Below, one piece after another: positions 31,747 to 53,010 of a stretch of DNA of 64,000 bases. Source of the stretch: an uncultured Gemmatimonadaceae bacterium (GTDB lineage Bacteria; Gemmatimonadota; Gemmatimonadetes; Gemmatimonadales; Gemmatimonadaceae); NCBI GenBank assembly GCA_963829055.1, contig CAWHHI010000016.1, positions 800,001 through 864,000 of the forward strand, given 5' to 3'. A program made the position numbers and the translations under genes. The number at the start of each line of letters is the position of its first letter. Position 1 is the stretch's first letter. Under the pieces are notes generated by a model that had not been told where the DNA came from, made no database searches, and saw only the letters and a list, made by a program, of their open reading frames with translations.

Positions 31747-32805
31747 TCACCCCGGTTCGGGTTCCCGCGGCGGGCCGGGTAATTCGTCAGGCGGCGGGGT
31801 GGGCGGTGTCGCGTCGCCCGTATTCGGGAGCGACCACGGAAGGCTTCGCAGGAGCGCCTCGATCGCGCTCGCCGCCTCACGCCGCTCGGCTTCCTCATCC
31901 GCCCGCACGAGCGCCGCCATGCGCAGACGGTCGCGACGGCGCCGGATCACGTAGAACGGCATCACGAGGAACAGCGTCAGCGCCGACGCGATGGAAAGAT
32001 CGGCCACGAGCGCGAGACCGCCATAACGCCGCCGGGTCCGCTTGCGCCAGATCTCCTCGAATCCTGGTTGAGTCAGGCCGTAGGCCGCGCGCACGGCGGT
32101 CTCGAACCGACCGCTCTGCTTCCAGTACTTGAAGAACAGCGTTAGGCCCCGTTCGGGATCCTGCGCCGCAAGCTCGGCCACCGCGCGATATGCCAGCGCA
32201 TACGTCCCCTCGGCGCGCAGCGACCCGCCGGCGAAACCGTTATCGAGCGAATCGAGCGACGGCATTCCGCGGAACAGCAGAACGAGGTTCGCTCCCAGAA
32301 TCGCGTCGCGCGCGACCTCGTTCGCGGCATAGCTCGCGTACCCTTCGTCGAACCACCGCGGCGGCAGCTCGCCGAGCGCCTCGTGCAACGCGAGATGCGC
32401 GAGCTCATGGCGGAGCACCTCGATGGGGTCACCGGCGTCGGATCCAGCGCCGCGCCCCTGCATCACGATGCGGTTCGACTCCGGGAACGCGACGGCAGCC
32501 CCCCATTCGGGCGCCGTCGGACCGATCCACTGGCGAAACCGCTCACGATCCGGCGCGACGGCAATGACGACGCGATTGGACGGCCGCGGTAATCCGGGGA
32601 AGGTGTCACGCGCGGTCGCCGACGCGAGAAGCGACTTCGCCAGCTGTTCATCCTGAGGATACGCGGCGACAGTGAATCGGCCGCGGTCGAAGCGCATTGC
32701 TTGCTGCTGCGCGCGCGCCAAGCTCGGCACGCACAGAAGAACGCCAATAAGCGCGCGCAGCAGCCGCGGGAATCGGGAATCGGGAATCGGGAATCGCGGC
32801 CGCAT
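31747..32805 (-). CDS. Exported, membrane-anchored zinc metallopeptidase (peptidase MA-like)
   Basis: HELAH...PRWFDEG gluzincin-type motif, signal peptide and C-terminal TM; ATG 32805 lies in the loop of a repeat hairpin. Confidence 0.8.
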   Translation of the reverse strand: MRPRFPIPDSRFPRLLRALIGVLLCVPSLARAQQQAMRFDRGRFTVAAYPQDEQLAKSLLASATARDTFPGLPRPSNRVVIAVAPDRERFRQWIGPTAPEWGAAVAFPESNRIVMQGRGAGSDAGDPIEVLRHELAHLALHEALGELPPRWFDEGYASYAANEVARDAILGANLVLLFRGMPSLDSLDNGFAGGSLRAEGTYALAYRAVAELAAQDPERGLTLFFKYWKQSGRFETAVRAAYGLTQPGFEEIWRKRTRRRYGGLALVADLSIASALTLFLVMPFYVIRRRRDRLRMAALVRADEEAERREAASAIEALLRSLPWSLPNTGDATPPTPPPDELPGPPREPEPG

Positions 32806-32844
32806 GTTGCTTGGATTCCCGATTCCCGATTCCCGATTCCCGAT
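32768..32844. repeat. (GGGAATC)4-spacer-(GATTCCC)4 inverted heptamer element
   Basis: Arms at 32768-32795 and 32814-32841 are perfect reverse complements. Confidence 0.95.
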
Positions 32845-33692
32845 CAGTCCGGCGTCCCTCCGGCTTCCACGCGAGCCAATACCTCTGCGCACCGCTTTCC
32901 CCATGGATTGAACTTGTTCGCCGCCGCACCGGCGCGCCAAGCCTCGCGCGCGTCATCCGGTTGTTCGGCCAACCAATGCGCACGACCGAGCTCGTAGTAC
33001 GCCTCGAGGAGGTTCGGGCCAAGCGAGAGGCTCTTCCGGAAAAACGTCTGCGCGTCCTCGTACATCTCGCGCTCGAGGTACACGAGACCGAGGTAGTAGT
33101 GCGCGTACAGCGTCGCTTTCGCGTCATTGTCGAGGCGGATCGCCTTCGACAGGTGCTCGATGGCCTCGCCGAAGATGCGCTTCTTCAGACAGATGTACCC
33201 GACGTTGATGCGCGCCAGCGCGTTCGCCGGCTCCTTCATCAGCACGCGCTGGAAGTTCATCAAGGCGTCGTCGTACTTCTCCTGATGCATCTGCGCCCAG
33301 CCGAGCAGCGAGATCGCCTGCGGATCGTTAGGCGAGAGCTCCAGCGCCTTGCCCAGCGCCGCCTCGGCGGCCGGGTAGTCGCCGAGCGAGATGCGCGACC
33401 ATCCTTTCTCGATGAACGTGGATGCGCCAATGTGATCGGCACGCAGCGGTGGGGCGACGGGTTGCGGGCCGGTCGGATACGCGGCACCGCCCGCCGTTTT
33501 CCACCGTTCCGCGAGCTTCTTCACATCCTCTTTGAGGGCCGCGAGCTCGGTGATCTCGCGCTCGACGCCGCGGAACAGCTCGATGATCTCCGCCTTGAGC
33601 GCGGCACGATCGGTCGACGCGTCGGCGGCATCCAGGCGCGCCGACAGTTCGGCATATCGCGCACGCAGGTCGCCGGCGGGCACGTCAGGCAT
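32844..33692 (-). CDS. TPR protein with N-terminal coiled coil
   Basis: TPR units (ALELSPND, VLMKEPAN, AIRLDND, SLSLGPN). Confidence 0.85.
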   Translation of the reverse strand: MPDVPAGDLRARYAELSARLDAADASTDRAALKAEIIELFRGVEREITELAALKEDVKKLAERWKTAGGAAYPTGPQPVAPPLRADHIGASTFIEKGWSRISLGDYPAAEAALGKALELSPNDPQAISLLGWAQMHQEKYDDALMNFQRVLMKEPANALARINVGYICLKKRIFGEAIEHLSKAIRLDNDAKATLYAHYYLGLVYLEREMYEDAQTFFRKSLSLGPNLLEAYYELGRAHWLAEQPDDAREAWRAGAAANKFNPWGKRCAEVLARVEAGGTPD

Positions 33693-34170
33693 TCCGTGCC
33701 GGCTCCTCCGACGGTCGCTCGAGCACGATGCGCTCGTCAGTTGAAAACAGGCGTGGCACATCGAGAAATATGACCAGGCGCTCCCCGCGACGCACGACAC
33801 CGCGCAGGTAGCTCGCGGCGAGGCCGCGGAACAGCGTTGGCGGCGGAGCGAGCCGCGCGGCGTCGAGCACACTCACGTCCAGCACGCCGTCTACCGTTGC
33901 GGCAACCCACTCGTCATCGACGGTCAGCACGAGGATGCGCGCATCGCTCGGAATGGGCGCAGCGGGCAGCTCGAACCGCTTGCGCAGATTGATCACCGGG
34001 ACGACCCGCCCCTGATAGTCGATGACGCCTTCGATCCAGGGCGGGACGTTAGGCACCGGCGTCGGTGCTGCATAGCGAAGCACGCGCTCCACCGAGAAGA
34101 TGTCGGCGGCGAACAGCTCGTCGCCGAGGCGGAACGTCACGATCTGTGACGCGGTCGCGGGTGCGGTCAT
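33685..34170 (-). CDS. cheW: CheW adaptor
   Basis: VTFRLGDELFA, TPVPNVPPWIEGVIDYQGRVVPVINL. Confidence 0.92.
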   Translation of the reverse strand: MTAPATASQIVTFRLGDELFAADIFSVERVLRYAAPTPVPNVPPWIEGVIDYQGRVVPVINLRKRFELPAAPIPSDARILVLTVDDEWVAATVDGVLDVSVLDAARLAPPPTLFRGLAASYLRGVVRRGERLVIFLDVPRLFSTDERIVLERPSEEPARNA

Positions 34171-34883
34171 AACGAGTCCGGTGAAGCGACGGCGAGGCAG
34201 GTGTCCACGACGACATCGGCGTCGAGCAACGTCACGAGCTCGGTGCCACGCCAGACGACACCGAGCACCATGCCGTCGGCGTCAGTATTGGGTACCGGGC
34301 GCACCGTGTCGAGGGACACATCGAAGACGTCATCGACGGCGTCCACGGCCAGCGCTATCCGTGTGGCCGAGGGACGCATAACGAGCGTCATCGTGGGGCT
34401 GCCCATCGACGGGACGGCGAGCACTCGCGCGAGCGCGTACATGGGCAGGGTGCGGTCGCGCAGCGCGAAGATCCCGAGCATCGCCGGGGGAGCGTCGGGG
34501 ATGGCGCGGGCGTCCACGCCCTCTACAGCCTCCTCCACCGCTCGGAGCTCCGTGGCGAACAGCTCCAGCCCTACGCGAAACACGAGTAGATCCGCGTGCC
34601 CCTCCCGCGCCGCAATACGTTCGCGGAACGGCGTGACCGGCGCTGGCGGCGCCGCGAGCTCGAACGGCGGAAGCTCGGTATCGAACTCCTTCGGTCGAGG
34701 CTGCCCGTTGTTCAGTGAGAGTGCCAACGTGCGCAGCGTCATCCGAGCCGCGTGGTCGGCGCGGCTCAACGCTCCCGGCCCGCGCTCGGAGGGCGCAGGG
34801 ATCGCGAGGACAGGCTCGTGGGGGGTCTTTCGACGGAGGCGTGGCATTACCTCAAAGGACAGTCGTGCGATAGGACGCGTCAC
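34167..34883 (-). CDS. cheW: CheW-domain protein with N-terminal extension
   Basis: LLVFRVGLELFA, IPDAPPAMLGIFALR, AVDAVDDV; start uncertain. Confidence 0.8.
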   Translation of the reverse strand: MTRPIARLSFEVMPRLRRKTPHEPVLAIPAPSERGPGALSRADHAARMTLRTLALSLNNGQPRPKEFDTELPPFELAAPPAPVTPFRERIAAREGHADLLVFRVGLELFATELRAVEEAVEGVDARAIPDAPPAMLGIFALRDRTLPMYALARVLAVPSMGSPTMTLVMRPSATRIALAVDAVDDVFDVSLDTVRPVPNTDADGMVLGVVWRGTELVTLLDADVVVDTCLAVASPDSL

Positions 34884-34916
34884 GGGTGACGCCTGGCGGC
34901 GGATGTCCTGCGTGAC

Positions 34917-35990
34917 CTATGCCACACTCGCGCGCGTTCGACCGACCGCGGCGCTGATTTCCGCACCGATGTCCGCGAGCGGCAGCATCCGATCGGCGCC
35001 CGCCGTCGCCAGTGCGGCCTGCGGCATTCCATACACGATCGACGTCGCCTTGTCCTGCACGATGGCGTACCCTCCCCTGTCGCGGATCGCCCGGAGACCC
35101 TCCGCGCCATCACGCCCCATGCCGGTGAGCACGACGCCGACGACTCGCGCGCCGAAGCGCTGGGCCGCCGACCGGAACAACGGATCCGCCGAGGGGCGGA
35201 CCCCCCAGATGGGAGGCGTCTGATCCAGCGCGATCACCGGAGCTCCGGACACGTCGATGACACGCATGTGCATGCCGCCAGGCGCGACGTACACGCGCCC
35301 GTGCTCGATCCGGTCACCGTGGCGTGCTTCCGTCACGCCTAACGCGCTCATCGCGTTGAGCCGCGTCGCGAGGCTGGTCGTGAAGCCGGCCGGCATGTGC
35401 TGCACGACGAGCACCGCGGCATCCATGCCAGCCCGCAGCCTCGGAATCACTTCCGCGAGCGCACGCGGTCCGCCGGTCGATGCCGCGATGACGACGGCCT
35501 GCGTCGCCGCACCGCGCTCGACGAGCGTCGCGCCTCGCTGGACGAGGGACGGGCGTGCGAGCATCGGCACGCCGCGGAGGTTCACGCATGACGCAGCGCG
35601 CAGCGCATCCAGCAAGCGCGCGCCGAGCAGCTCGGCGGTGTCGCGCGCCGACCCATTCGGCTTGTGCACGAAATCGACGGCGCCGAGCTCGAGCGCGCGG
35701 ATCGTGAGCTCTCCACCGTTAGGCGAATCGAGGGCGCTCAGCATCACCACGGGACGCGGCGTCTCGCTCATGATGTAGCCGAGCGCCTGGAGGCCGTCCA
35801 GCTCGGGCATCTCGATGTCGAGCGTGACGATCTCGGGGTCGAGCGCGTGGATCTGCTTCAGCGCGTCATGGCCATTGCGTGCCGTGCCGACGACGCGGAA
35901 CTCGCCGCTCGTCGACAGAATCTCGCTGACCATCTTCCGCATGAACGCACTGTCGTCGACGACAAGGACAGTGCGTGGACTAGAGGACAC
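34917..35990 (-). CDS. cheB: Chemotaxis methylesterase CheB (REC plus esterase)
   Basis: VVDDSAFMR, LDIEMP, ASTGGP, VQHMP, TGMGRDG. Confidence 0.96.
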   Translation of the reverse strand: MSSSPRTVLVVDDSAFMRKMVSEILSTSGEFRVVGTARNGHDALKQIHALDPEIVTLDIEMPELDGLQALGYIMSETPRPVVMLSALDSPNGGELTIRALELGAVDFVHKPNGSARDTAELLGARLLDALRAASCVNLRGVPMLARPSLVQRGATLVERGAATQAVVIAASTGGPRALAEVIPRLRAGMDAAVLVVQHMPAGFTTSLATRLNAMSALGVTEARHGDRIEHGRVYVAPGGMHMRVIDVSGAPVIALDQTPPIWGVRPSADPLFRSAAQRFGARVVGVVLTGMGRDGAEGLRAIRDRGGYAIVQDKATSIVYGMPQAALATAGADRMLPLADIGAEISAAVGRTRASVA

Positions 35991-36498
35991 GCTCTCCCAT
36001 CTTGAGCGACTTCACGACCACGCGGCCATCCGTGACGTGGAAGTACACGCTCCGCCCGTGCTCACCGCCCGTGTCGGACGCGACGAGGGGAATCTCGGCC
36101 AGCCGAAGCACGCGCTTCGTGGCTTCGACGTTACGCTCGCCCATGTTGATACCACCGGACGGCAGCAACGACGCGAACATGCTCGCGCCGCCTACGATCT
36201 TCGCCATCGGCCGCCCCCAGGCGCCGCGCTTCCGCATCTCCTCGACGAGCATCGGGATTGCCGTCGACGGGAACTTCGCGCGGTTTTCGCTGTCGAGCGA
36301 AAGCCCTTCGCTGGGGAGCAGGATGTGCGCGAGACCACCAATCCGCGACGAGCCGTCGTAGAGCATGATGGCCACGCACGAGCCCAACCCGATGGTCGAG
36401 ATGATCGATTCGCCGTTCGCCACGGCGTAGTCGGCGACCTTGACCCGGATCTCCTGCACTTTCGGATCGGTCACATTGGGCTCATTCACGTTAGGCAC
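35980..36498 (-). CDS. cheD: Chemoreceptor deamidase CheD
   Basis: TIGLGSCVAI, GLAHILLP, KIVGGASMF, GERN, DTGGEHGR. Confidence 0.94.
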   Translation of the reverse strand: MPNVNEPNVTDPKVQEIRVKVADYAVANGESIISTIGLGSCVAIMLYDGSSRIGGLAHILLPSEGLSLDSENRAKFPSTAIPMLVEEMRKRGAWGRPMAKIVGGASMFASLLPSGGINMGERNVEATKRVLRLAEIPLVASDTGGEHGRSVYFHVTDGRVVVKSLKMGERVL

Positions 36499-36500
36499 GG

Positions 36501-37319
36501 CTACCGGCGACGAAAGATGCGCTCACGCGGATCGACTGCGGCGAACAGGGAACGAGTCGGGCCCAACAACGTTTCGACCTTACCGAGAATCAGAAAGCCA
36601 CCCGGCGCCAGCGCATCGTAGAAGCGCTGGAAGAGATGCTCCTGCGTTGCACGGTCGAAGTAGATCAGGACGTTACGACAGGTGATGAACTGCATACCGC
36701 CCGGAGACGGATCGACGATCAGATCGCGCCGCTCGAACGACACGAGCGGCCGCACCTCCGGCACGACCTCGAACGGCGGTCGCAGGGAGAAGTAACGGCG
36801 TCGGATATCATCGGGCGTATCGGCGAATGCAGCCTCGGCGAACTGCCCGCGGCGCGCAGCCTCGAGGCTCGCGCGATCGATGTCCGACGCCAGCACCTGC
36901 ACGCGCGACGCGTCGGCCGTTTCACCCCGCATCGCCGCGTGGCGATGCAGCAGAATTGCCAGCGAGTACGGCTCTTCGCCCGACGAGCAGCCCGCGCTCC
37001 ACCCACGGATGGGACGCGTAGCCCCCTCCCAGAGTATCGGCACCACGAGGCGCGCCATGGCATCGAACGTCGACCAGTTTCGGAAAAGTTTGGTGACGTT
37101 AATGGTCAGCGTATCGATCAGCCGTTCGTACTCGACGGCGTCGCGATCGAGGAGCGCAGCGTAGTCGGAGAACACGTGAACGCCTCGCGCGCGCATGCGG
37201 ACGGCAATGCGGCGCCGGAGGCACTTCTCCTTGTAGCTCGAGCAGCCGAACGCGCGCTCGCGGGCGATCTTTGCCGTCAGCGCGGCGAATCCGGCGTCAT
37301 CGACCTCGGTCGTCATCAT
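36501..37319 (-). CDS. cheR: Chemotaxis methyltransferase CheR
   Basis: TINVTKLFR, WSAGCSSGEEPYS, CRNVLIYF, LAPGGFLILG. Confidence 0.95.
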   Translation of the reverse strand: MMTTEVDDAGFAALTAKIARERAFGCSSYKEKCLRRRIAVRMRARGVHVFSDYAALLDRDAVEYERLIDTLTINVTKLFRNWSTFDAMARLVVPILWEGATRPIRGWSAGCSSGEEPYSLAILLHRHAAMRGETADASRVQVLASDIDRASLEAARRGQFAEAAFADTPDDIRRRYFSLRPPFEVVPEVRPLVSFERRDLIVDPSPGGMQFITCRNVLIYFDRATQEHLFQRFYDALAPGGFLILGKVETLLGPTRSLFAAVDPRERIFRRR

Positions 37320-38933
37320 CCCGAGGTTCTCGCCGTCTCCAGATTCGTGCGCGCAATCGCATTCGTCGGCTCGAGCTCGAGCGCGCGCTTCCAGCAGCGG
37401 TTTGCTTCTTCGCGCTCCTGCCGGCGATACCGGAGGTTGCCGAGCTTGAGGTAGACGTCGGCGCCAAGGTTCGGGCGGTGCTTCACGGCGCGGAGGTAGG
37501 ACTCGAGCGCGTCGTCGTAGCGGCCCGACCGGTAGTAGCTGTCGCCGAGATTCTTGTGCAGCTGCGGCAGCGTCGCGTCCTCGAGCGCGCCTCGCTCGAA
37601 GGCCACGGCGGCATCCGGGTTCCGGCCGCGACGCTCGAGGGCGACGCCGAGGTTGTTGAGCAACACCGCCGAGTGCGGATGCGCACTCACACCATTCGAT
37701 AGCAAGGCGATGGCGCGATCGATGTCATTTGCCAGCGCCGCGGTGAGCGCCGCGTAGTGGAACCACGCCGCGGGCTTCGGCCGACGATCCCAGAGCGCCG
37801 CCGCGTCGTTCATCGCGGCGTCCGCCTCGGCGATGTCGCCGCGCCGCAGCGCGAGCACGCCCGCCGCGAGACGCGTGCGTGGATCGTGACCGCCGACGCG
37901 AACGGCCTGCGCCAGCACATCGGCCGCTTCGTCGTACCGTCCGAGACGCTCCAGCGCGTACGCCAGATTGTGATAAACGGCCGGATTGATCGCGCGGCGT
38001 GACACCATCTGCTGGAACAGCGTGACGCCGTCCTGCCATCGCCCCTGTCGCAGCAGCACGAGTCCGGCGTAGAACGTCGCGAGCTCATCGCCCGGACGCA
38101 GCTCGTTCACGCGCCGGAATTCGCGCACGGCTTCGTCGAACATGCCGGCCTTGTAGAACGCGACGCCCAGGTTGCGATGCTCGGCCACACGCGACTCGGA
38201 CGTGACAGCTTCGACGGGCTTCGTCCGACCGACGCGGTGCAGGAAGCCCGCGGTGATGAGACCGTACAGCGCTTTCCCGACGTCGAACTCGCACGAGCCC
38301 GGATTCGTCCACGAGACCGGTGACATCGCGCTTGCCGTCGACGAGCGAGACGAGCGTCTCCTGCTCCGCCGTGAGCGTGGGGGCGCTGTCGGCGAGCCTG
38401 ACGCGATCGACCTCGAAGACGAGGTCGAAGCTCGGAATCTTCTTCTCGATCAGACTCCATTCGTCCACCCGTCGCGCGCCTTCGAGCAGCAGCGACTCTG
38501 GATTGATGGAGACGAGAAAGTCCTGCTCGTCAGGCGCGACGTCCGCCTCGAAGTTGAACGTGCCCTGATTCCACGTGAACAGGTAGAACACCGCCTCTTC
38601 GATCTGCAGGCGGATGTAGCGATGCAGTTCCTCCCGTGCGATGAACTCGCGCTCGACGAGGATCTCGCCGAGCCGCGTGTCGCGCTGCGTGTTCTGTCCG
38701 GCGACCGCCTCGTCGAGCTGCGCCTGGGTGATCAGGCCATTCTTCACGAGGATGTCGCCGAGTCGATCGCGGCGGTTCACGATCGACGCGTAGCAGATGC
38801 GACCCTTGTCGAAATAGATGTAGCCGAAGCTCTGGCGATGGGTGACGCTCAGGCAGCCGCTCTTCTTGCCCATGGAGAGCAGCTGCAACACGTCCGGGAG
38901 ACTCGCCTCGCTGAGGCTTCCCTTGATGGCCAT
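37316..38933 (-). CDS. DUF4388 (PATAN-like) domain plus type II secretion-N-like segment plus TPR protein (frameshift near 38292)
   Basis: [45 protein letters not shown], then TPRs in ORF 37316-38326. Confidence 0.85.
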
Positions 38934-40855
38934 CAGCGCAGTTCCTCGATGACACGGCCATCCAGATCAGGCCATTCCATCACGATCTTTTCCGCGTCGA
39001 GGAACGACTTGTCCCCGATGGTCGGGACGGACACCGGCGTGGCGGCGCCACCGGAGTTGAGCTCACGCCTAACGATGGACATGGTGATCGGCCCGCCAGC
39101 GGCGCGCGCGGAGTGGGCGACGCGGTCGACGACCGACTCCACCTCGCCAGCACCCGACACCGGCAGCTCGGCGAGTAGCGCCGCCACGCCAGGCTCGGCG
39201 TCAGGCGCTCGATCCATGAGCATGCGCGAGTACAGCGCCTCGCGTAGCGTGCGATCCGGCGGCTGGATCGCGACCACGAGGCCGCCGTCGAAGCGCGACC
39301 GAAGGCGCGCCTCGAGCTCCCCGATCTCGGACGGTGGCCGATCGCTCGCGAGCACGACCTGCCGACCCGCGCTGTGAAGCGCGTTGAACAGGTGGAACAG
39401 CTCTTCCTGCGATCGCTCTTTCCCCGCCAGCGCATGGACGTCATCGACGATGAGCGCGCCCGCGGCGCGATAGCGCGAGCGCCACCGGTCGACGGTGCCT
39501 CCCTGTAGCGCGGCGATCAGCTCATCGACGAACTGCGAACCGCTCACGCACGCGACGGGGCCCGACAGCCCTTCCTTCCGACGCAGCGCGTTGCCGACGG
39601 CGTGGACGAGATGCGTCTTGCCCACGCCCGGGCCGCCGTGCACGAACAGTGGATTGTACTGCGAGCCGGGCGCGTTGACAGCCGCGTCCGCGGCGCGCAG
39701 CGCAAGCTGATTGGACTTGCCCGCGAGGAGTGTCTCGAGCGTGTAGGCTGGCCACGGAGCAGGCGGTGGATCGTGAGCGGCGATCGCCTGCTCGACACGC
39801 ACCTCCGCTTCCGCAACGCGCTGTGGGTCGCGAAAGACGTCGAGGCCGGCGAGTCGCGGATCCAGCAGCACGGCCTGCGCCTCGAGTTGTTCGAGACGAG
39901 TCACGCCGCTCGCGAACGCGGCGTCGAGCGCATCCACGTCCGCTTCTTCGGTCAGCGAGAGCGCGCGGTCCAGCATCGTCGTCCGGTAGCCAGCCTTCTG
40001 CCAGTGTGCGATACGCTCGCCGAGTCGCACGCGCCACCCTTCGACGTGCTGGGCGACAGCGACCGCGATGTCCGACAGGAAACCAGCAAACTCGTCGCTC
40101 GCCCCGGGTGTCGCACCGCCGAACTCGGGCGTCACGCGCGCCCCGGAAATGATCGCCCGGACGTTCGCGGGCGTCACGGTGCGCTCGCCTAACGCTTCGT
40201 GGGCCGCCAGCCGGTTGAGCGCGCCCTGCAGCTCGCGCACGCTGCCGCACGGCAGGCGCGCGAGCTCCTCGAGCACACCATTCGCGAACGTCATCTCCCG
40301 TTCCGCGCACTTGTTGCGGAGAATCGCGACGCGGGTTTCGTATTCCGGCAGGCCGATGTCCACGATCAACCCACCGGCGAGGCGCGTCACCAGGCGCTCG
40401 TCGACGTCGGCGATCTCCGACGGAGGCCGATCGCTCGCCATGATGATCTGACGCCCACTGCCCTGCAGCGAGTTGAAGATGCGGAGCATCTCGCTCTGCG
40501 TCTCGCGGCGGCCGGTGAGGAACTGGACGTCATCGAGCAGCAGCAGATCGACGCGCTGGTACAGCTGCTTGAACGCTTCCGCGTGGCCGGCGGAAATCGC
40601 GATGTGGAGTCGGTCGACGAAGTCATCGAGCGGCACGTACTCGATGACGAGCTCCGGCTGCAGCTGCTTGGCGGCGAACCCGATGGCGCCGATCAGGTGC
40701 GTCTTGCCGAGGCCGGACGGGCTGTAGATGAAGAGCGGGTTGTACGTGGCTCCGGGCGACTCCGCGACGGCGCGGCCGGCCGCGACCGCGAGGCGGTTCG
40801 ACGCGCCGACGACGTAGTTGTCGAATCGAAATCGTCCGTCCAGGAGCAGACTCAT
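38933..40855 (-). CDS. Protein with two tandem DnaA-type AAA+ modules and no DnaA domain I or IV
   Basis: Module 1: [10 protein letters not shown]...[17 protein letters not shown]...DDVQ. Module 2: [17 protein letters not shown]...DDVH...[10 protein letters not shown]. Confidence 0.9.
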
Positions 40856-41469
40856 CGTCCCACGGCCACACTCGGCGCAGTGGTCCCGCTCAGGCGGCGC
40901 AGCACGAGCTCCGAAATGCTGCGCAGCGTCTCGAAGACGCCGGTGCCGCGAAGGGCATCGCCGGCGTGAAAGGGCACACCACGAAAGTTGATTGCATCGT
41001 CGAGCTCATCGACATCCACGATGAGCTCGCGAGGCAGATCCTGCTTGTTGTACTGGATGACGAGCGGAACATTCCGCGCGTCAATGCCCTGCTCCGCCAG
41101 ATTCGCGTGCAGGTCCTGCATGCTCTCGATGTTCTCATCGAGCTGGCGCCGCTGACTGTCTCCGACGAACACGACGCCGTCCGCGCCCTGCAGCACGAGC
41201 TTGCGCGTCGTCGCATAGTAGACCTGGCCGGGCACCGTGTACAACTGAAAGCGCGTCGTGAAGCCCGAGATCATCCCGAGGTCGAGCGGCAGGAAGTCGA
41301 AGAACAGCGTGCGGTCGGTTTGCGTCGCGAGCGAGACCATCGACCCTCGGCGCTCGGCCGGCACCTGGTTGTAGATGTAGTGCAGATTGCTCGTCTTGCC
41401 CGAACGGCCCGGCCCGTAATAGACGATCTTGCAGGTGATCTCGCGCGCGGCGTAGTTGACGAGGGACAT
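40852..41469 (-). CDS. mglA: MglA-family small GTPase
   Basis: [45 protein letters not shown], matching Myxococcus MglA motifs. Confidence 0.93.
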
Positions 41470-41471
41470 GG

Positions 41472-41945
41472 TCAGATCCTGTCCGAACAACTTCGCCAGG
41501 TTGCGGTTGAGGTCCGACTCGAAGTCCACGAGACCCGGCGCGACGCTCGCGATCGCGGCCGATGGCGTCGCCGCGGCGAGGCGCGCGCCCAACTCCTTGA
41601 AGTAGAGCCGCACGAGGCCGATCGAGGTGGTGTCGTCGAACACGGTCAGAAGAATGTGCGCTCCACGCGCCGTTGGTAGCTCGCCAAGGAATATTTGTCG
41701 CTGGTTCCCGGGATGGTGCATCGTGGTGAATGCGGCTGCCATCGAGCTGCCGTCCGATCTCCGATCCGGTCGCGTGAATCGCCGCGGCGAGCGCGCAGGC
41801 GGACATGACGTCGATGCGAACGGGTGAACCCGTGTTGGGCAAGCACGCGTCCACTCGACTCGAGCAGCAGCACCAGCCTAACGCGCGAATCGTCGATGAA
41901 CCGGAGCAGCGGCTGCTCCATCCACTGCTCGACGGCGATTCTCAT
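41472..41945 (-). CDS. MglB-like roadblock protein (2-3 apparent indels)
   Basis: Pieced across frames: [40 protein letters not shown], with a C-terminal helix [14 protein letters not shown]; directly upstream of mglA. Confidence 0.75.
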
Positions 41946-41955
41946 GATCGCACGC

Positions 41956-42306
41956 TCACGTGAGCGCCCTCGCGGCGCGCATCATCTCGACCCGCAGAAG
42001 GCCGATGTTCGCGCGCGCTTCCGAGATCGTCACCAGCACGAGGTCGTCGCGGCCGGCAGCACAGATCCCGCCGCGTTCCGCGTCCAGGCGCAGGAACGTG
42101 ACGGTGCCACAACCGGCAGCACCACACGCGAGACGTGCCTTGCGATGCAGCGACGCAGCCAGCGCGGCGACGGCCTCGGCCTGGACGCCGATCTGCACGT
42201 TGGAGTCGATCGAGAGACCGTCGCGCTCCGAGACCACGAAGCTTCCCACCACGCCGCGGTGACGGGAGAGCATCGACAGGAGCTCCGCGTAAGGCGTCTT
42301 GTTCAT
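41956..42306 (-). CDS. Roadblock/LC7 domain protein
   Basis: GVVGSFVVSERDGLSI, AVAALAASL, ANIGLLRVEM. Confidence 0.85.
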   Translation of the reverse strand: MNKTPYAELLSMLSRHRGVVGSFVVSERDGLSIDSNVQIGVQAEAVAALAASLHRKARLACGAAGCGTVTFLRLDAERGGICAAGRDDLVLVTISEARANIGLLRVEMMRAARALT

Positions 42307-43290
42307 GACACCCTCGCGAGCCAGTCACGCGCGCGGCCGAGCGCGCGGTCCAGCAGCAATCGCACGAGACCGACTGGCGTCTGCCGCGATGCGGCGACGA
42401 CGAGCAGGCTGCCCAATGGCGCGGGCGTCATGGCGACGACGGCGGCATCGGCCTCGACGAGCAACGACGTCCACGCACCGAGGCCCAGATGGCGCATCGC
42501 GCGCTCCGCCTCGCTGCTCACCCCCGCCAGCTCGGCTGCAACGATGTCGGCCACGTCGTGGCCGTTCGCGTCCTGGTACGAGCCCGCGAGCACGAGACCG
42601 TCGGCATCCACCAGCAACGCGGTCTGGTCGGGTCCCTCGAGCGCGGGAACGAACAGCTGTCGCGCGCGAGTGGGGTCGGGTGCGGGGTATTCAGGGATCG
42701 CGAACGGCGCAGCGGTTGACTGGTGCGCGCACATCACTCGAAACGGACGGCTCCGCCGGCCGTCGTGAGACGATCGCGTCAGGCGGCGAAGGCATCGATA
42801 CCTCAGCAGGCATTGCCTCCGCAACCATCGTGTGCGCACCGTTGGCCCGTACGCCGTTCGACGCGGTGTTCGCCACATTCGCGGCCTGCGAGCCCCGCGC
42901 GAATCGCACGTGCGCCAGTGCCGCAGCGACCGCGGGGTTCTGCCCGTCGGCAGCGGAGGACGAGAGCCGCCGTTCGGCACTCTCGAAGTCGCCGCGTCGA
43001 AAATCAACGAACCCGAGCCCGAGGCTCGCCTGCGCGTGCGACGGATCCAGACGCAACGCCATCTCCCACTCGTCGGCCGCGCGCTCGACATCACCACGGT
43101 CCGCGTGAATACGCGCTAGCACATCGTGCGCGTCGGCCAGATACGGATGGCGATCCAGGCCACGCAACGCAACACGCAACGCGATATCGAGCTGTCCCGC
43201 GCGACGCAGCGCATCCGCGAGCGGCAGGAACACGAGGCTCGACGGATCGCGCGCCAGGTCATCGCTCAGACGACGAATCTCGTCAGCCAT
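42303..43290 (-). CDS. TPR plus roadblock/LC7 fusion protein (frameshift near 42730)
   Basis: N-terminal DPSSLVFLPLADALRR TPRs (ORF 42691-43329); C-terminal LLVDADGLVLAG...PVGLVRL (ORF 42303-43097). Confidence 0.75.
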
Positions 43291-44432
43291 CATCGACTCC
43301 CTTGAGCAGCGCGCGCAGTCGGACCACACAGTCGAGCATCTCGCGGACGCGGGGCACAGCCGGCCGATCGCCCGCCTCCATCAAGTACCGCTGCCACGAC
43401 AGGATCGCCTGGTCCATCCCCGCGCTGCGCGCCGCGGTCGCGCCAAGCGCGAGCAGCACCTCGGGGTTGCGCGGCTCGATCTGCGCCGCGCGGCGGAGCG
43501 CGTCCAACGCCTCGGACTCGCGCTCGAGCCGCATGAGCGACCGCGCGACAAGCACCTGCGGCTCGGCGCGCGTGGGCGCGGCGCGACTCGCTGACATGGC
43601 GGCCGCGAGTGCCTCGTCGAGGCGTCCGTCGCGAAGTGCCTGACGCGCGAGCTCGATGTGCGGCGCCGGATCATCGCCGGGAAGTGGCTCGACGATCGCG
43701 AGCTTCTCCGCCGACCCGGACCTGAATGATGCCGGTGGAAAGCAGACCGTACGCGATCTTCGCGACGTCGAACTCGCTGCGTCCGAGGCGCATCGCGATG
43801 CCGCGCAGATCGGTCTGGCCGTCGATCATCGCCAGCATCTCCCACTCGTTCGGCAGCAGATCCAGCAGCGACGGATGATCCTCGTCGATCGGCGCGAGTA
43901 CGGGCACGACCGCGAGATTCGGGATCTTGTGCGAGATACGAGCCCACTCATCGATGCGTCGAGCGCCTTCCATGAGGAGCGACTCCGTGGAGATGCGCGC
44001 CACTGCCTCCGTCGTGGCGTCAGAGGACGGCCCCTCGACGAACGAGAAGAATCCTTCCTGCCACGACATGAGCTCGAAGACGACCGTCTCGATCTGGCGT
44101 CGCACCTGCCGCTCCAGCTCGCGCCACGTTAGGCAGCCGGCCTCGACGAGCAGCTCGCCGAGCCGCTTGCCGTCGGCGCGCTGCGCCTGCGCCGTGCGCG
44201 CCCGCTCGAGGTCACCCTCCGAGATCTTCCCGGCCTTCACGAGCAACGCGCCGAGTGGATGCGGGTTGGTGCGGATGGAGGCGGACACGACACGGCCCGA
44301 TTCGAAGCTCACGATGCCTTCGTTGTCGCGCAACGCGGACGTCACGCGCAACGACCCCGTCTTCCGGCTCAGGTCGAGCAGCTGGAAGACGTCATGGATG
44401 CCGAGCTCGCGGAGCGGTCCCTCGATCGCCAT
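43283..44432 (-). CDS. DUF4388 domain plus TPR protein (frameshift near 43717)
   Basis: MAIEGPLRELGIHDVFQLLDLSRKTG, LLMEGARRIDEW; the shifted frame joins the TPR ORF 43283-43597. Confidence 0.82.
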
Positions 44433-47278
44433 TACGCGGCTGGCTCCCGTGCGGCGAAGATCCGTTGCAGGTCGGTGGCCGTCCGCGTGTCTCGACGCGC
44501 ACGCCGCGCGTACTCGCTCGCGGGCTCGAGGTCGACGACTCTGCGCCAGCGATCGATCGCGTCACGGTATCGGTGTTGATCAGCCGCCAACACGCCCTCG
44601 AAGTACAGGGCGCCCACGTGTTCCGGATCGAAGCGCAGCACGCGCGCGAACGCGACGGCGGCGTCACTGCGTCGCGTGCTCTCGAACAGCGTCTCGCCAA
44701 GCGATGTCAGCGCGTCGAGATTGTACGGGTCGCGCTGCAGGAGATCAACGAGCAGCGACATTGACTCCGCGTGGCGCTGCAGTCGGCGGCGCAGCGACGC
44801 GAGCGCGAGCGCTGCCTCGGTGTACGTGGGCACCGAGTCGAGGGCCGACGCGAGCTCCTGCTCGGCGTCGGCGTTCAACCCCTTCATCTCCAGAATCGTC
44901 GCCAGCTGGTACCGCACGACCGCAAAGTCAGGATCGAGCGTGAGCGCATGACGATACGCCTCGATCGCACTCTCGAAGTCGCCGATGGATCGCGCGACGT
45001 CGCCGATCTGCTTCAGTACGTCGGCTCGCGCAGGCGCACCACGACGCGCTCGCTCGAGCGCCTCGAGTGCCGCCGCGGGATCACCACCGTCCGCACGAGC
45101 GGTTGCCGCGAGTATCAGCATCTCCGACATCGGTAGGCGACGGCGCTCAACAGGTCCTCGGCCAGTGGACGCGCTTCGGCGCCGCGCCCAAGCATGATCA
45201 GCACGCGCACCTCTCCCGCGGTGGCGCGCCGAGCGGCGGGAGACGCGACACCGGACGCATCGGTCGCCGCGGAGCGGGCGCCGCGATACCGCTCCAGCGC
45301 TTCGCCGTACGCACCCTGCTTGGCGAACACGTCGCCTAACAACGTCAGCCCCTCCACCGCTTCGCCGCCACGCCCCAGCACTCGGCTCGCTTCCGCGGAC
45401 GCGCGATCGAGCAAGCCTTTCGACAAGTAGTCGGCAGCAGCCGAATACGGGGTGCCCGCCGGAGTGGGCGGCACGGGAGTGGGGGCGACAGGCGCGAGCT
45501 CGGTGAACAACGAGTCGAGCACGCCGATGTCAAACGCGAACTCCTCGACTGATCCGTCGGTGCGCTTCTCGCCGCCGAGATCAGGCACGATCGCGAACTG
45601 TGGATCCTCGAACTCCAGGTCGATCGCGAGCTCGAACTTCTGCTGCACGTAGTACGGATCGATTTCGAGCGCGCGCTTCGTCGCCTTGAGCGCACCCTCG
45701 TAATCGCCGAGGTTCGAAAGCACGAAACTGAGATTGTAGTGCGCCTCGGCGTAGTTCGGCCTGGCCTGAATGGCGCGGCCGTACGCGTTGCGGGCGTCCT
45801 CGAGCTTCTTGAGCTCGACGAGCACGAGCCCCACACCGTTCCAGGCCATGGGCTGTTCGGGCTCGAGCTGAAGCACCTGACGATACGCCTCGAGGCATAA
45901 CGGCAGACGCTTGTTCTTGAACAGCAGGAGCGCGAGGTTGAGCCGCGCCTTGATGAACGACGGCTGCGCCTTGAGCGCGAACCGGAACGCCTCGACCGAT
46001 GCCTCGGCGTTGCCGATGTGATACAGCGCGACGCCGAGGTTGTTGAGACCTAACGCGTACTTCGGATCGCACGCCACGCCGCGCCGGTAACTCTCGGCGG
46101 CTTCGGCGTAGCGGCCGTCCTGATGGAGCGCGATGCCGCGTTCATTCCAGAGCTTCGGGCTGTCCGGACGCGTCGCGAGCAGCTTGTCGTACAGCTGCGC
46201 GGCCATCGCCGGCTCCTTCTTGAGCAGGTGCACCTCGGCCATCGCCTGCAGCACCAGCTCCGCGTCCTCGCCTCGGTCGGCCGCGAGGCGGTATTCGCGA
46301 AGCGCTTCGGCGTAGTAGCCCTTCTGACGGAACGCGAGACCGAGGTTGAAGTGCGCGAGCTGTCCTTCCGGCGCGACGGCCATCTCGCGATCCAGCGCGC
46401 GCGCCGCGCGTTGGGCGACGACGGCTTCGTACGTCTGCGGCGTACTGCGGTCGAGCGACAGATTCGCGTGCGCACGGGATAGCGCGGGATTCAGCTGAAT
46501 CGCGCGCTTGGTCGCTTTCTGCGCTTCGTCGTGACGCCCCATGTCACCGAGCACGAAACCGAGCAGGTAATGCGCGTCGGGATTGTCGGGGGCGAGATCG
46601 ATGGACCGCTTGAGTGCGTGCAGCGCCTCGTCGTTCAGCCCTCGGTTGTACAGCACCTCGCCGACGTAGAACTGGATGACCGCGCTCTGCGGATCGATCG
46701 CGAGCGCGCGGGCGAACCAACGCTGCGCCGTCTCGAGGTCGCCGCTTCCCTTCTCAGCGAGTCCGAGCTGGACGATGGCGCCGATGTCGTCGGGATAGAA
46801 GCGCAGGAGGTCGGTGAACTCCGCGACGGCGTTGTCCACCTGGCCGAGGAGCGCGTACGTGCGGCCGAGCTCCCAACGGGCCTCGCGGTCGTCGCCGTGC
46901 AGCCGCAACCGATCGCGCAGCTCCGACACGCGGCGGTCGTAGTAGCCGGTGTTGAAATAGGCGATCTCGAGATTGCGCTGCGCGACTTGCATTTTCGCGT
47001 CGAGCTCGAGCGCACGCGAGAATGCGGCGACGGCCTCGCCTAACAAGCCCTTGTTGTAGTAGAGAACGCCCAGGTTGTTGTGCGCGCCGGCGTCCGAGGG
47101 ATCAATTCGGCGGGCGAACGAGCGGAGGACGTCGCGGTCGCGCTCGGACGTCAGCTGAGCGTTGGGGACTGGCACTGGGGACTGGGGACTGGGGACTGGG
47201 GACTGGGGACTGCTGCTCGACGAACGAGCAGACGTCGGTTGCGAACAGGTCGTCAGCAAGGGAGTCGGGAATCGTCAT
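44432..47278 (-). CDS. Large TPR protein, about 940 aa (frameshift near 45135; start ambiguous within the heptamer element)
   Basis: Many canonical TPRs (AHNNLGVLYYNKG, AHYNLSFV) across ORFs 45115-47259 and 44432-45130. Confidence 0.82.
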
Positions 47279-47351
47279 GCCGCGGCCTCGGGCACGCAGC
47301 CACCTAACGCGCGTCCCCCAGTCCCCAGTGCCGAGTCCCCAGTCCCCAGTC
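47163..47351. repeat. (GGGGACT)n-spacer-(AGTCCCC)n inverted heptamer element
   Basis: About 7 units at 47163-47211 and about 5 units at 47315-47351. Confidence 0.93.
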
Positions 47352-47354
47352 GGT

Positions 47355-47975
47355 TCATCCCAGACGAACCGCCCTGAGAATCGCCTGAAGCGATGCCACG
47401 TCAGGCAGCAGCAGGAAGAATCCGCGCAGACGCTCGTGCAGGTCGTGCATGTAAAACTCGCTCTCGACGCAGAACACGTAGTCGCGGTCGGTGCCGAACT
47501 GCAGATACGCGGTCGTGAGCACCGCGCTCGACATGTCCACGGCGAGACTCGGCGGCGAGGGCAACAGCATCAGCCCCATGAAGTCGCTCAGCGCATTCAT
47601 GTACGCGCCACTCAGGATGTTGCCCGCTTCCTTGATCGCGGACTGCTCGAGCTCTCCGAGCTCCTTGGACGTCCCAGCTGGCCGACGCAGCATCAGCTCC
47701 GAGAGCCTAACGGCGGTCGACTTCGGAAACACGAGCAGCGTGCGCCCGGTGAGGTCGCCCATCATGTGCATGAGCACCGCGGCGACCGGCTCTTCCGGTC
47801 CGGAGATTTGCGGCGGGACATCCTCGAGCTTGGCGATCGTGATCGTCGGCACGCTGATCATGATCGTGCTGCCGGTCATCTGTGACAGCGCAGTCGCTGC
47901 GTGACCGGCGCCGATGTTCGCCACCTCGCGCAGCGCGTCCACTTGGACCGGCTTCAGATCCCTCAGGTCGTTCAT
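47355..47975 (-). CDS. cheC: CheY-P phosphatase CheC
   Basis: Two ExxN sites: DALREVANIGAGHAATALS and SAIKEAGNIL. Confidence 0.94.
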   Translation of the reverse strand: MNDLRDLKPVQVDALREVANIGAGHAATALSQMTGSTIMISVPTITIAKLEDVPPQISGPEEPVAAVLMHMMGDLTGRTLLVFPKSTAVRLSELMLRRPAGTSKELGELEQSAIKEAGNILSGAYMNALSDFMGLMLLPSPPSLAVDMSSAVLTTAYLQFGTDRDYVFCVESEFYMHDLHERLRGFFLLLPDVASLQAILRAVRLG

Positions 47976-47985
47976 TCGCGCTCCG

Positions 47986-49940
47986 CTAAAAGAGACTGCT
48001 CACATCGAGGATGAGCGCCGGAACCCCGTCGCCGAGGATCGTCGCCCCGCTGAACACGGAGAGACCGTCCCGCACCGCATCGAACGGCTTGATGACGATC
48101 TCCTGTTGTCCCGTCAATTCGTCCACCACCATTCCGGCGCGCCGGTCGGCCACCTCCAATACGACGACTTGGCCACCCCCCGCGTCGCGCCTTGGTAATC
48201 GGACCACGTCGCGGAGATGCATCAGGGGCAGCACATCGCCGCGGAGCACGAGAACTTCGGCCCCCTTCACGTGGCGAATCGTGTTCGCCTCCAGGTGCAC
48301 GGTCTCGTTGACGTGCGTCATCGGAATCGCGTACGTCTCATCACCAACCTTCGCCAGCAACGACCGCACGATCGCGAGCGTCACGGGCAAACGCACCGTC
48401 ACGGACGTCCCCTCGCCTTTGGTCGAGCGGATGTCCACGGTGCCGCCAAGCGCTCGCACTCGGGCATGCACCGCGTCGATGCCGACGCCGCGACCGGAGA
48501 GGTCGGTCACCTGTCTTGCCGTCGAGAACCCGGGGCGTGCAATGAGACGAACCAGCTCGTCATCCGTGAGCTCGGAGCGGCTCGCGTCCATCAGCCCTAA
48601 CTCCTTCGCACGAGCGAGCACGCGGTCGCGGTCGATGCCCTTGCCGTCATCCGTGACGCGGATCACCACCGCGGACCTGTCGCGCGCCGCGGTCAGCGCG
48701 AGCCGCCCGGTTGGAGACTTGCCCGCCGTCGACACGAACGTCCGGCGCTTCGAGGCCGTGATCGATTGCATTCCGCAGCAGATGCACCACAGGATCGCCG
48801 ATCTCATCGAGCAGCGAGCGATCGAGCTCGATCTCCTGGCCTGAGACCACGAAGTCCACCTGCTTGCCCAGCGCGCGTGCGGCATCGCGGACGACTCGCG
48901 GGAATCGATCGAACACCTGCCACACCGGCACCATGCGACTCGTCATGATGCCGTCCTGCAAGTCAGCCACGAGGCGCGATGCCTGCGTGACGGTCTCCGT
49001 CAACGCCGGCTCGTTGATCGTGGCGGCGAGCTGCTGCAGTCGGCCCCGTGTGATCACGAGCTCGCCGATGAGGTTCATCAGCGTGTCGAGGCGGTGGAGA
49101 TCGATGCGGATGTGTCGGTGTTGCCGCGCCGGCGCAAGCTCGCTCGCGCTGCCCGCCGAGATCGGGAGCAGGTCGGGCAGGTCACCGTTAGGCACGGTAG
49201 CCACGTGTCCGTTCGTGCTCGGTGCCGCCCGCGTTATCACGATATCGGCGACGTAGCCGGCTGCCCGAAGCGCGCGGTCGATCTCGTCATCCGGTGCCGA
49301 CGTATCGAGCCCAATCGTTAGGCGTCCAGCGAACGCCTCGTCGCTGAACGTGCTCGGATCAGGCGTGGTGCTCACGACGGTAGCGAGTGCCCGCGCGCGC
49401 TCGAGCACGAGATACGCACGAACGCCTGGCATCGGCGTGTTCGCCTCCTGCGTGACCACGACCGTGACCGGGGCGACGGCGCTCGCGGCGGCGCGCCTGG
49501 ACGAGCGCTTCTTCCGCGGCTTTGCCGTCGCTGTCGGTGCCGGCGAGTGGACGGCTGGGTTCCGTCGCGGCCGCGGCTCTCAGCGCCGCGATGGTCGTAC
49601 TCGCATCGACGTCCGATTCGCGTCCCGCGACCGACAGCTCGATCGCGCGCTCCAGCATGTCGGTGGCGGCGAACAGCGTGTCCATGAGCGGCGCCGAAAC
49701 AGCGCGCTCGCCGCGTCGGACGAGATCGAGCAACGTCTCGAGCTCGTGGGACACCTCGGCGACGACGGCGTAGCCCATCGTCGCGCTCATCCCCTTCACC
49801 GTGTGCACGGCGCGGAACAGTGCGCCGACCGGCTCTCGCGCCGTCGGCGTTCGTTCCAGCTCGAGCAGCGCGTGATTGATCGCCGAGAGATTGTCCTGAC
49901 TCTCGGTCAGGAACAGCTCGGCGTACCGGGAGGTGTCCAC
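47986..49940 (-). CDS. cheA: Chemotaxis histidine kinase CheA (frameshifts near 49480 and 48735)
   Basis: Hpt LFRAVHTVKG; LDTLMNLIGEL; HLLRNAIDHG; DDGKGID; SGRGVG; C-terminal CheW domain. Confidence 0.93.
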
Positions 49941-49980
49941 GGAAAACGCTCAGCGATGAGCGTTCAGAGCGCGATGCGGC

Positions 49981-50343
49981 CTATCCGAGCACGCGCTGCA
50001 CCGCTTCCAGCACGCGACTCGGCTGGAACGGCTTGACCACGAAGTCCTTCGCGCCAGCCTGAATGGCCTCGACCACGAGCGCCTGCTGGCCCATCGCGCT
50101 GCACATGAGCACCTTCGCCTGCGGATCGAACTTCGTGATCTCGCGAACGGCGTCGATGCCGCCCATGTCGGGCATCACGATGTCCATCGTGACCAGGTCG
50201 GGTCGAAGCTGCCGGTATTTCTCGACCGCCTGCACGCCGGTCTCCGCCTCGCCGATGATCTCGAATCCCGCCTGCTGCAGGATGTCGCCGACCATGGTAC
50301 GCATGAAGATCGCGTCGTCACAGATCAAAACGGTATGGCTCAC
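49981..50343 (-). CDS. cheY: Single-domain response regulator CheY (Bacillus/Thermotoga-like)
   Basis: ICDDAIFMR, TMDIVMP, CSAMGQQ, DFVVKPF. Confidence 0.93.
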   Translation of the reverse strand: MSHTVLICDDAIFMRTMVGDILQQAGFEIIGEAETGVQAVEKYRQLRPDLVTMDIVMPDMGGIDAVREITKFDPQAKVLMCSAMGQQALVVEAIQAGAKDFVVKPFQPSRVLEAVQRVLG

Positions 50344-50425
50344 GTTCCACTCCACACCAAAGGACGGGACGATTCGTACCACGTTATGCAGCGACAGATC
50401 TCGACGATGTCTCGCCGGTACTCAG

Positions 50426-50560: not shown

Positions 50561-51019
50561 TCACGCCATTACTTGCCGTACGACCGCGGGGATCTCGAGT
50601 ACTATGACGACTCCGTCGTCCAGATGTCCCAAACCGCGCACGATTCCGCCGCGTGCCAGATCACCCGTCGCGGCCTCGAAGCGCTCCGGCGGCATCATCT
50701 GCACGTCGCGCACGTCATCGACCGCCAACCCGACCTGTTTGGTGCCGAATTGGGCGAGCACGATGGACCCGTCGTCTGCGCACGTCGACCCCGCGAGCCG
50801 AGTCGCCAGATCGATTACCGTGACGATGGCGCCGCGGAGGTTGACCAGTCCGCGGACGTACGCCGGGGCGCCCGGGAGCCGGGTCGCATGACGGATCGGA
50901 ACGATCTCTCGTACCGCCGCAATGTCACAGCCGTACACCGTGCCCGCCACCGCGAACAACAGCAGTCGGAGTGCGCCTGTGTGATTCGCGTCAGTCGGTG
51001 CTGTCGCTGTAGAAGCCAA
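50561..51019 (-). CDS. cheW: CheW adaptor
   Basis: VREIVP, TRLPGAPAYVRGLVNLRGAIVTVIDL, GLAVDDV; start uncertain. Confidence 0.92.
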   Translation of the reverse strand: MASTATAPTDANHTGALRLLLFAVAGTVYGCDIAAVREIVPIRHATRLPGAPAYVRGLVNLRGAIVTVIDLATRLAGSTCADDGSIVLAQFGTKQVGLAVDDVRDVQMMPPERFEAATGDLARGGIVRGLGHLDDGVVIVLEIPAVVRQVMA

Positions 51020-52022: not shown

Positions 52023-52029
52023 CGGATTC

Positions 52030-52602: not shown

Positions 52603-52969
52603 CTTCCTCGCGCTGCTTGCATTCGATGCAATACCGCGCGTGCGGAAGCGCATCGAGACGCTCGTAGGCGATCTCCTGTCCACAGTTGTGACACTTGCCG
52701 AACGTATCCGGGGCTCGATAGAGCCGGCGGAGTGCTTCGTCGATGTGCCAGAGGAATCGACCCTCCTGGCTCGCGAACAGGAACGCCTTCTCGCGCTCCA
52801 TCGCGTCGGTGCCCTGATCGGCCATGTGAAACGAGTAGGAGCTCAGATCGCCGTCAGCCGATTGTGGCGTCGACCCAAACGTCTCGTCATAGTGGCCGAG
52901 CTCCTTCAGCACCCGACGGCGCTCTTCGAGCAGCCTCTTCTCGAAGTGCTGAAGGTTCTTCTTGTTCAT
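52586..52969 (-). CDS. TraR/DksA C4 zinc-finger protein
   Basis: HMADQGTD, CHNC...ERLDALPHARYCIEC. Confidence 0.9.
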   Translation of the reverse strand: MNKKNLQHFEKRLLEERRRVLKELGHYDETFGSTPQSADGDLSSYSFHMADQGTDAMEREKAFLFASQEGRFLWHIDEALRRLYRAPDTFGKCHNCGQEIAYERLDALPHARYCIECKQREEDAKKQ

Positions 52970-53010
52970 CGACTTTGCCTTCTTCGTGCCGCCGCTTGCG
53001 GTTGGCATCG

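Follow-up and report, generated by a model that had tools for sequence, protein, structure and literature searches.

Tandem DnaA domain III proteins as candidate signalling adaptors in a chemosensory-MglAB-PATAN operon of Gemmatimonadales

We analysed a stretch of DNA of 64,000 nucleotides (the window) from an uncultured Gemmatimonadaceae bacterium (GenBank assembly GCA_963829055.1, contig CAWHHI010000016.1, positions 800,001 to 864,000 of the forward strand), and focused on a gene for a 640-amino acid protein in which two AAA+ modules of the DnaA domain III type are joined in one chain (the tandem DnaA-III protein). We propose that this protein is an adaptor for the DUF4388(PATAN)-tetratricopeptide repeat (TPR) protein encoded directly downstream, that it carries an optional DnaA-derived ATP switch, and that it acts on type IV pili or cell polarity, a reading to which we assign a probability of roughly one half. 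Since some relatives lack both ATPase cores and have kept two short motifs, a signalling adaptor is likelier than a replication factor. An earlier note on this DNA had read the gene as an initiator ATPase repurposed as a signalling switch or scaffold with asymmetric modules, or else as an Hda-like or dominant-negative regulator of DnaA; the first of these readings, including that the protein is not an initiator, is supported here, and the second is weakened.

The gene family forms a natural series from 640 to 60 amino acids, which hints at the residues that matter for function and at one likely partner. In genomes that have lost both modules, a short open reading frame (ORF) persists at the same place and encodes a mini-protein of 60–80 amino acids, made up of an EFxxF(L/M)xD helix and the tail EKxxWxWP...R.IEE.R. 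This mini form was found in 14 of 401 genomes from four genera of one family, using a profile built from seven of them, the other seven being new (this count, the same-genus identities and the counts with 61 and 80 aligned rows below include the unpublished genome G013, and no claim depends solely on it). All 14 mini genes lie directly before the DUF4388-TPR gene, and 13 of the 14 partners precisely lack the MshEN-like insert (about residues 55–108; L091-L099, L111-L124), with the seven aligned partners also lacking the last TPRs. Mini genes are under purifying selection, the ratio of nonsynonymous to synonymous polymorphism (pN/pS) being below 1 in 19/19 within-genus pairs (0–0.77). The DUF4388-TPR gene is the sole neighbour common to all mini operons: L098, L099, L113, L115, L119 and L123 are without mglA or mglB, L097 has mglB and no mglA, and L094 has no nearby che genes and belongs to a genus in which none of three genomes encodes a methyl-accepting chemotaxis protein (MCP). 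A quick tree of the partner protein requires two origins for the mini form and two for the form with a single module.

Intermediate forms complete this series. We scored the elements of the protein in the 150 best representatives, many of the remaining rows probably being fragments, and found 49 complete proteins, 11 without module 2, five without the middle domain and one without both module 2 and the middle domain that keeps the EF helix and the tail. The C-terminal tail is the most widely retained element. The structural model of the mini-protein shows one long helix, followed by an extended segment and then a short helix, with no compact fold (predicted template modelling score, pTM, 0.41), as might be expected for a ligand peptide, and Pfam returned only chance-level matches for these proteins. 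In genome G023, a short ORF of repeated five-residue units lies between the mini gene and the DUF4388-TPR gene (L093:9985-10092), and one family member (P0194) has a response-regulator receiver domain in place of the tail.

Based on these data, we hypothesise that the protein serves as an adaptor or scaffold in a chemosensory-MglAB-PATAN system that steers type IV pili or cell polarity, and that the EFxxFL helix and the WxWP tail, both short linear motifs, would hold its indispensable function. Both motifs could dock on the co-translated DUF4388(PATAN)-MshEN-TPR protein. The DnaA-derived modules would then act as an optional ATP-dependent switch in which module 1 binds ATP and module 2 supplies the arginine-finger face, either from the same or from a neighbouring chain. 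Having one well-formed composite site, such chains may assemble like DnaA into dimers or short oligomers, in which the motifs would be clustered or exposed.

Several observations weigh against this proposal. The mini lineages represent few independent events, namely one clade of 11 rows plus G023, and three of the 150 representatives have no EF helix or a degenerate one, with a further 12 in which it was undetected. Mini genomes retain a paralogous mglA elsewhere, so that MglA stays a candidate partner, and the DUF4388-TPR protein is itself proposed from gene neighbourhood and co-retention only. The EE codons of the tail overlap the Shine-Dalgarno sequence of the next gene (GAG GAG in 55/80), hence part of the tail conservation may reflect translational coupling; the tryptophans, the EF helix and the tails that run past the motif are not explicable by this overlap. 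In the AlphaFold model of the full-length protein the arrangement of the modules is not fixed (pTM 0.50), and two loci (L158 and L164) break the assignment of the ATP site to module 1, having a Walker A motif in module 2 only.

The architecture of the full-length protein agrees with the motifs listed in the earlier note. Both modules carry YNPLF (residues 38 and 400), Walker A (GLGKT at 48, GVGKT at 410), Walker B (DDVQ at 108, DDVH at 471), SDRPP (141 and 504) and an arginine-finger box (RLVTR at 154, RLRSR at 517), and module 1 has the sensor-II motif SVRELQGAL at residue 205. Pfam Bac_DnaA matches in two stretches (E 5e-106); neither Bac_DnaA_C nor any domain-I family was detected in the Pfam scan of the protein at E ≤ 0.01, as had been anticipated, and domain III begins at residue 5, which leaves no N-terminal domains I and II. 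AlphaFold predicts two confident AAA+ modules (mean predicted local distance difference test score 87.5), with a helical part in the middle and hinges of low confidence at 241–264 and 602–616. The middle domain has no Pfam match and no usable match in the ESM Atlas; units resembling it occur in 7–8 tandem copies in unrelated long DnaA-III proteins. Fold, Walker A/B, arginine finger and initiator-specific motif are those of DnaA domain III (PF00308; PDB 8bv3, 8btg, 2z4r, 2hcb, 3r8f), the best solved match being that of Bacillus subtilis (8bv3, root-mean-square deviation 1.8 Å over 232 columns, 40% identity). Unlike DnaA, however, the protein has two modules in one chain and no domains I, II or IV, adds a helical domain and two linear motifs, splits the cis and trans faces between its modules, and is encoded in a signalling operon in which the modules are dispensable. 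It is not a member of DnaA, given the missing domains I and IV and the location of its gene.

To compare the modules residue by residue, we mapped the residues of B. subtilis DnaA, with roles as given in the available part of PMC6669920, through 8btg alignments onto 61 homologues and 20 canonical DnaAs; the 61 sequences left out three duplicates, two contig-edge fragments, two pieces of a split gene (G150) and canonical DnaA. Module 1 keeps Walker A and Walker B in all 61 sequences, sensor I in 58 and sensor II in 59, together with the cis-face equivalents of F218 (56), G317 (58) and R313 (within 56–59); it has the arginine-finger residue in 57, arginine in place of H231 in 58, and no conserved arginine at R206 (top residues Q26, G6, L6). 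In module 2 the arginine finger is invariant (61/61) and the trans face is kept (R202 in 57, R206 in 56, L269 in 58, R264 within 56–61), as is Walker A/B (57–60), with variation at the sensor-I aspartate (27), F218 (10), G317 (31) and sensor II (42). The modules are thus asymmetric as previously claimed, although the nature of the asymmetry differs: judged from residue conservation, it is a split of faces, with module 1 keeping the predicted ATP (cis) face and module 2 the predicted arginine-finger (trans) face. The loss of the sensor-II arginine from module 2 (GAGEVES, residue 568), on which the asymmetry had been based, holds for the host protein; as a family-wide loss it is ruled out, since 42 of 61 homologues keep the arginine.

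An invariant arginine finger in module 2 raises the alternative that the protein regulates DnaA, in which case the finger face of this module would dock on DnaA-ATP to trigger hydrolysis or cap the filament, as Hda or a filament-capping protein might, and the motifs would tether it to the polarity system, placing replication under the control of signalling. We consider this unlikely. The trans-face residues that module 2 retains are essential in B. subtilis DnaA according to the available part of PMC6669920, both modules are about 40–43% identical to the host DnaA encoded on contig C3, and database relatives, which are named as Gemmatimonadaceae proteins, are in some cases labelled 'DnaA/Hda family protein'. 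Like Hda and HdaA (TIGR03420; PDB 5x06, 3bos), the protein is a DnaA-clade AAA+ protein without a DNA-binding domain and with an intact arginine finger.

Hda carries an N-terminal motif that binds the beta-clamp. Unlike Hda, the tandem DnaA-III protein lacks this motif, a clamp-motif-like string being present in only 1/61 homologues while the Escherichia coli Hda control was positive, and it has two modules and sits in a signalling operon. Its score against the Hda profile TIGR03420 is 162, below the cut-off of 194.8, and its PDB matches favour DnaA far over Hda (E 1e-52 vs 1e-8); it is therefore not a member of Hda. Module 2 was lost repeatedly, both modules are gone in 14 genomes with a normal dnaA, and modules of distant lineages are heavily decayed. 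Module 1, module 2 and the Gemmatimonadota DnaA each form a clade (SH-like approximate likelihood ratio test 99, 98 and 98), in the kind of phylogeny that had been proposed as a check; the tree does not settle the mutual order of the three, with support of only 76 for a joint clade of the modules, and it does not unite the modules with E. coli Hda, which occupies a long, unplaced branch.

The adaptor reading also draws on the operon, whose genes run cheY-cheA-cheC-TPR-TPR-DUF4388-TPR-roadblock-mglB-mglA-[tandem gene]-DUF4388/TPR-cheR-cheD-cheB-cheW-TPR-peptidase (Table 1). Apart from minor losses, 19 of 20 wide loci share this order. The start of the tandem gene overlaps the mglA stop as ATGA, as had been noted, and its stop overlaps the next start as TGATG. 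Among 61 full-length loci, the DUF4388-TPR gene is directly downstream in every case (gap ≤0 nucleotides in 53) and mglA directly upstream in 59 (gap ≤0 in 43). We never observed the tandem gene lacking a DUF4388-TPR gene downstream, apart from an LptB fusion (L160-L163). In relatives the DUF4388-TPR protein is encoded by one gene of about 540 amino acids, which in this assembly is broken in two by the insertion of one base near 38291; the insertion is absent from an independent contig. The DUF4388 proteins of the operon carry an MshEN-related motif for cyclic di-GMP (c-di-GMP), and the combination of a group-1 MglA, roadblock proteins and PATAN-domain neighbours identifies an MglA/PATAN system. 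No chemoreceptor was found among the genes scanned in the che operon (CheA, CheB, CheC, CheD, CheR, CheW, CheY; window 31747-50382); five MCP-domain matches lie elsewhere in the host genome, and at a single distant locus (L157) the operon includes an MCP.

The family is nearly universal in this abundant soil order. Using the full-length protein as query (E ≤ 1e-60) against 151 genomes of the phylum, we obtained matches in 93 of 107 other Gemmatimonadales genomes and in 5 of 43 genomes outside the order, where one match is an ordinary dnaA and one a single-module form. The 14 apparent misses within the order comprise six mini forms, one single-module form, three decayed doubles and four true absences, and some form of the gene is present in 103/107 genomes; the four genomes without it also lack the downstream DUF4388 gene, yet encode dnaA. 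Operon order is likewise kept in most of 20 metagenome loci, which were found by a middle-domain pattern so that conservation of the middle domain there is by construction. They include 12 contigs of low GC content (29–47%) that have mglA directly upstream or the DUF4388-TPR gene downstream, mostly with cheR-cheD-cheB; the modules in these distant low-GC loci are strongly decayed. A contig search that used P0266 as query yielded nothing beyond four ordinary dnaA loci of Firmicutes.

The position of mglA, directly upstream in most full-length loci and also in distant contigs, suggests another alternative, namely that the motifs or modules bind MglA-GTP and that the protein is an MglA effector or regulator, like SgmX or RomRX in Myxococcus. 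This appears quite improbable. The emphasis that had been placed on mglA is weakened because selection maintains the gene even where its operon no longer has this mglA, and genomes with only a paralogous mglA and no downstream DUF4388 gene lack the tandem gene. Moreover, the known MglA effectors bind via TPRs, according to the available part of PMC11580455, and neighbouring genes supply TPRs here. A second mglA paralogue, 51% identical, is present in the host (G000:C16:1127460-1128131) and in most relatives, including those without this operon.

A third alternative is that the initiator-specific motif of module 2 binds single-stranded DNA (ssDNA), such as DNA imported through pili, and reports its presence to the che/PATAN system. 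Module 2 does retain ssDNA-motif residues (isoleucine or valine at the I190 equivalent in 54/61, K222 in 47/61). Loci L157 and L158 have cinA downstream and a PilT-like gene upstream, and L158 also has recA. However, module 1 has changed at both sites (I190/K222 to H/R), and the histidine at its I190 site (51/61) breaks a continuous ssDNA track; module 2 is also the module more often lost, and its retained residues may be merely structural. We therefore regard an ssDNA sensor as very unlikely.

A second initiator, or a decaying or artefactual dnaA duplicate, is refuted by the missing domain IV and DnaA boxes, the separate dnaA, purifying selection and an independent contig, even though the protein passes the cut-off of the DnaA profile TIGR00362 (487 vs 343.9), which it reaches only as the sum of two stretches. 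This joint score is why the family is annotated as DnaA, which inflates dnaA counts. The duplication is supported as the earlier note asked: a contig from an independent run spans 38976-40507 without gaps across both modules, and same-genus genomes encode the whole 640-amino acid protein at 86–88% identity, which together rule out an assembly artefact. The modules are only 35% identical to each other, which further argues against a recent assembly duplication. All structured parts show a ratio of nonsynonymous to synonymous substitution rates (dN/dS) of 0.02–0.13 in six same-genus genes. As predicted, a separate canonical dnaA is present on contig C3 of the host genome, beside the genome's sole dnaN and thus away from the tandem gene; the only Bac_DnaA_C of the genome is also on C3, where domain IV of the canonical dnaA lies in the next frame behind one frameshift. 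No DnaA box (≤1 mismatch) occurs at 29–52 kb of the window, vs five at the dnaA locus. One-base insertions at 38291, 41480/41481 and 41733 are lacking in independent contigs, so the frameshifts in neighbouring genes are assembly errors. The cheA gene in three frames (window 47986-49940) and the frameshift before domain IV of the canonical dnaA (C3 ~530000) are probably indels of the same kind. A single RNA run yielded only a few low-depth contigs.

Returning to the adaptor reading, the output of the system is probably type IV pili or polarity. PATAN domains bind PilB and PilC in Synechocystis, as stated in the available part of bioRxiv 10.1101/2021.06.11.447907; PilB/PilT-type ATPases are present, and a PilT-like gene is located just upstream in three loci scanned (L151, L157, L158). 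No FliG was detected in the host genome (G000, 86% complete) or in 8 of 20 full-length genomes, which rules out a flagellar output as a requirement for these genomes. The operon resembles the Myxococcus MglA/MglB-SgmX and cyanobacterial PatA/PATAN systems, where MglA, roadblock, TPR and PATAN/DUF4388 proteins are tied to type IV pili; unlike in those systems, all components are encoded here in one operon with CheA, CheC, CheD, CheB and CheR. No DnaA-type ATPase turned up for the Myxococcus MglA or cyanobacterial PATAN systems in the portions of the literature covered. The available part of the PMC4316618 supplement lists the Gemmatimonas locus GAU_1409 as PATAN>MglA>-PATAN> and does not mention DnaA. 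Two AAA+ modules per chain are also found in type II AAA+ proteins such as p97/Cdc48 and Rix7, which gave weak whole-chain Foldseek matches (TM-score about 0.3, 13–16% identity); unlike these proteins (p97/NSF/ClpB, Classic and HCLR clades), the tandem modules belong to the DnaA clade, nothing points to a ring or to the threading of substrates, and the likeness is one of convergent architecture.

DnaA domain III is otherwise known from replication control. Neither this protein family nor a DnaA domain III in a chemosensory or polarity system is described in the literature searched, which included the available parts of PMC11580455 and PMC8287927 and had subscription papers and bioRxiv supplements outside its scope; the family is real and conserved, and within this literature it is undescribed. 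Owing to the natural size series, the system is open to tests with short peptides and with cultured strains of Gemmatimonas.

A broader and doubtful idea is that c-di-GMP/PATAN pilus signalling has, on more than one occasion, co-opted DnaA filament chemistry as an ATP switch that limits itself. In the present family, a DnaA dimer offering one ATP face and one arginine-finger face would be mounted on a two-motif adaptor and would report ATP, ssDNA or DnaA to the polarity system. If true, this would link replication state directly to motility, and separate DnaA-III fusions would be parallel cases. Two such proteins of 1,876–1,990 amino acids (P0195, P0199) carry an N-terminal MshEN domain and two copies of DnaA domain III separated by a very long helical stretch, and lack domain IV. 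In the tree they group separately from the tandem DnaA-III family, so DnaA-III may have been recruited into c-di-GMP signalling a second time. Four others (P0229, P0238, P0243, P0260; 1,250–1,420 amino acids) have 7–8 tandem middle-domain-like units followed by one DnaA domain III, with a zinc ribbon in two of them and an N-terminus that is PATAN-like by eye only, without a Pfam match.

Table 1 Features of the tandem DnaA-III gene and its operon (positions in the window).
Feature	Position	Strand	Basis
Tandem DnaA-III gene, 640 amino acids	38933..40855	-	ORF list, Pfam, motif positions, AlphaFold
Module 1, residues 3-238, DnaA domain IIIa/b	40142..40849	-	Structure matches, residue conservation
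EFxxFL helix, residues 254-272; kept in 14/14 mini-proteins	40040..40096	-	Alignment
All-helical middle domain, residues 276-362, W..EGY/F motif	39770..40030	-	AlphaFold, alignment
Module 2, residues 363-601, DnaA domain III	39053..39769	-	Structure matches, residue conservation
C-terminal tail EKxxWxWP...R.IEE.R, residues 618-640	38936..39004	-	Alignment
DUF4388(PATAN), MshEN-like c-di-GMP motif and TPRs; proposed partner	37316..38933	-	Domain scans
mglA, Ras-like GTPase, group-1 type; stop overlaps start of tandem gene	40852..41469	-	
mglB-like and roadblock/LC7 genes; assembly frameshifts near 41480 and 41733	41480..43097	-	
TPR proteins (714, 232, 212 and 104 amino acids) and second DUF4388/MshEN-motif protein (43671-44432)	42691..47259	-	
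cheY, cheA (three frames), cheC	47355..50382	-	Domain scans
cheR, cheD, cheB, cheW (two copies), TPR protein, peptidase MA	31747..37319	-	Pfam

Other arrangements of DnaA-III were observed beyond this operon. In L160:9989-11809, and also in L161-L163, a decayed module 1 and middle domain are fused in frame to an ABC ATPase; the fusion lies in an lptC-lptA-[fusion]-rpoN operon at the expected position of lptB, and occurs in several contigs. Other, independent tandem DnaA-III proteins (P0196, P0256, P0258) group near E. coli DnaA, with P0196 having two domain III copies plus domain IV. Upstream of the operon and on the same strand, the window (50561-58575) encodes genes that resemble, by eye, divIVA, a nucleoside phosphorylase gene, ileS, lspA, a pseudouridine synthase gene and cheW.

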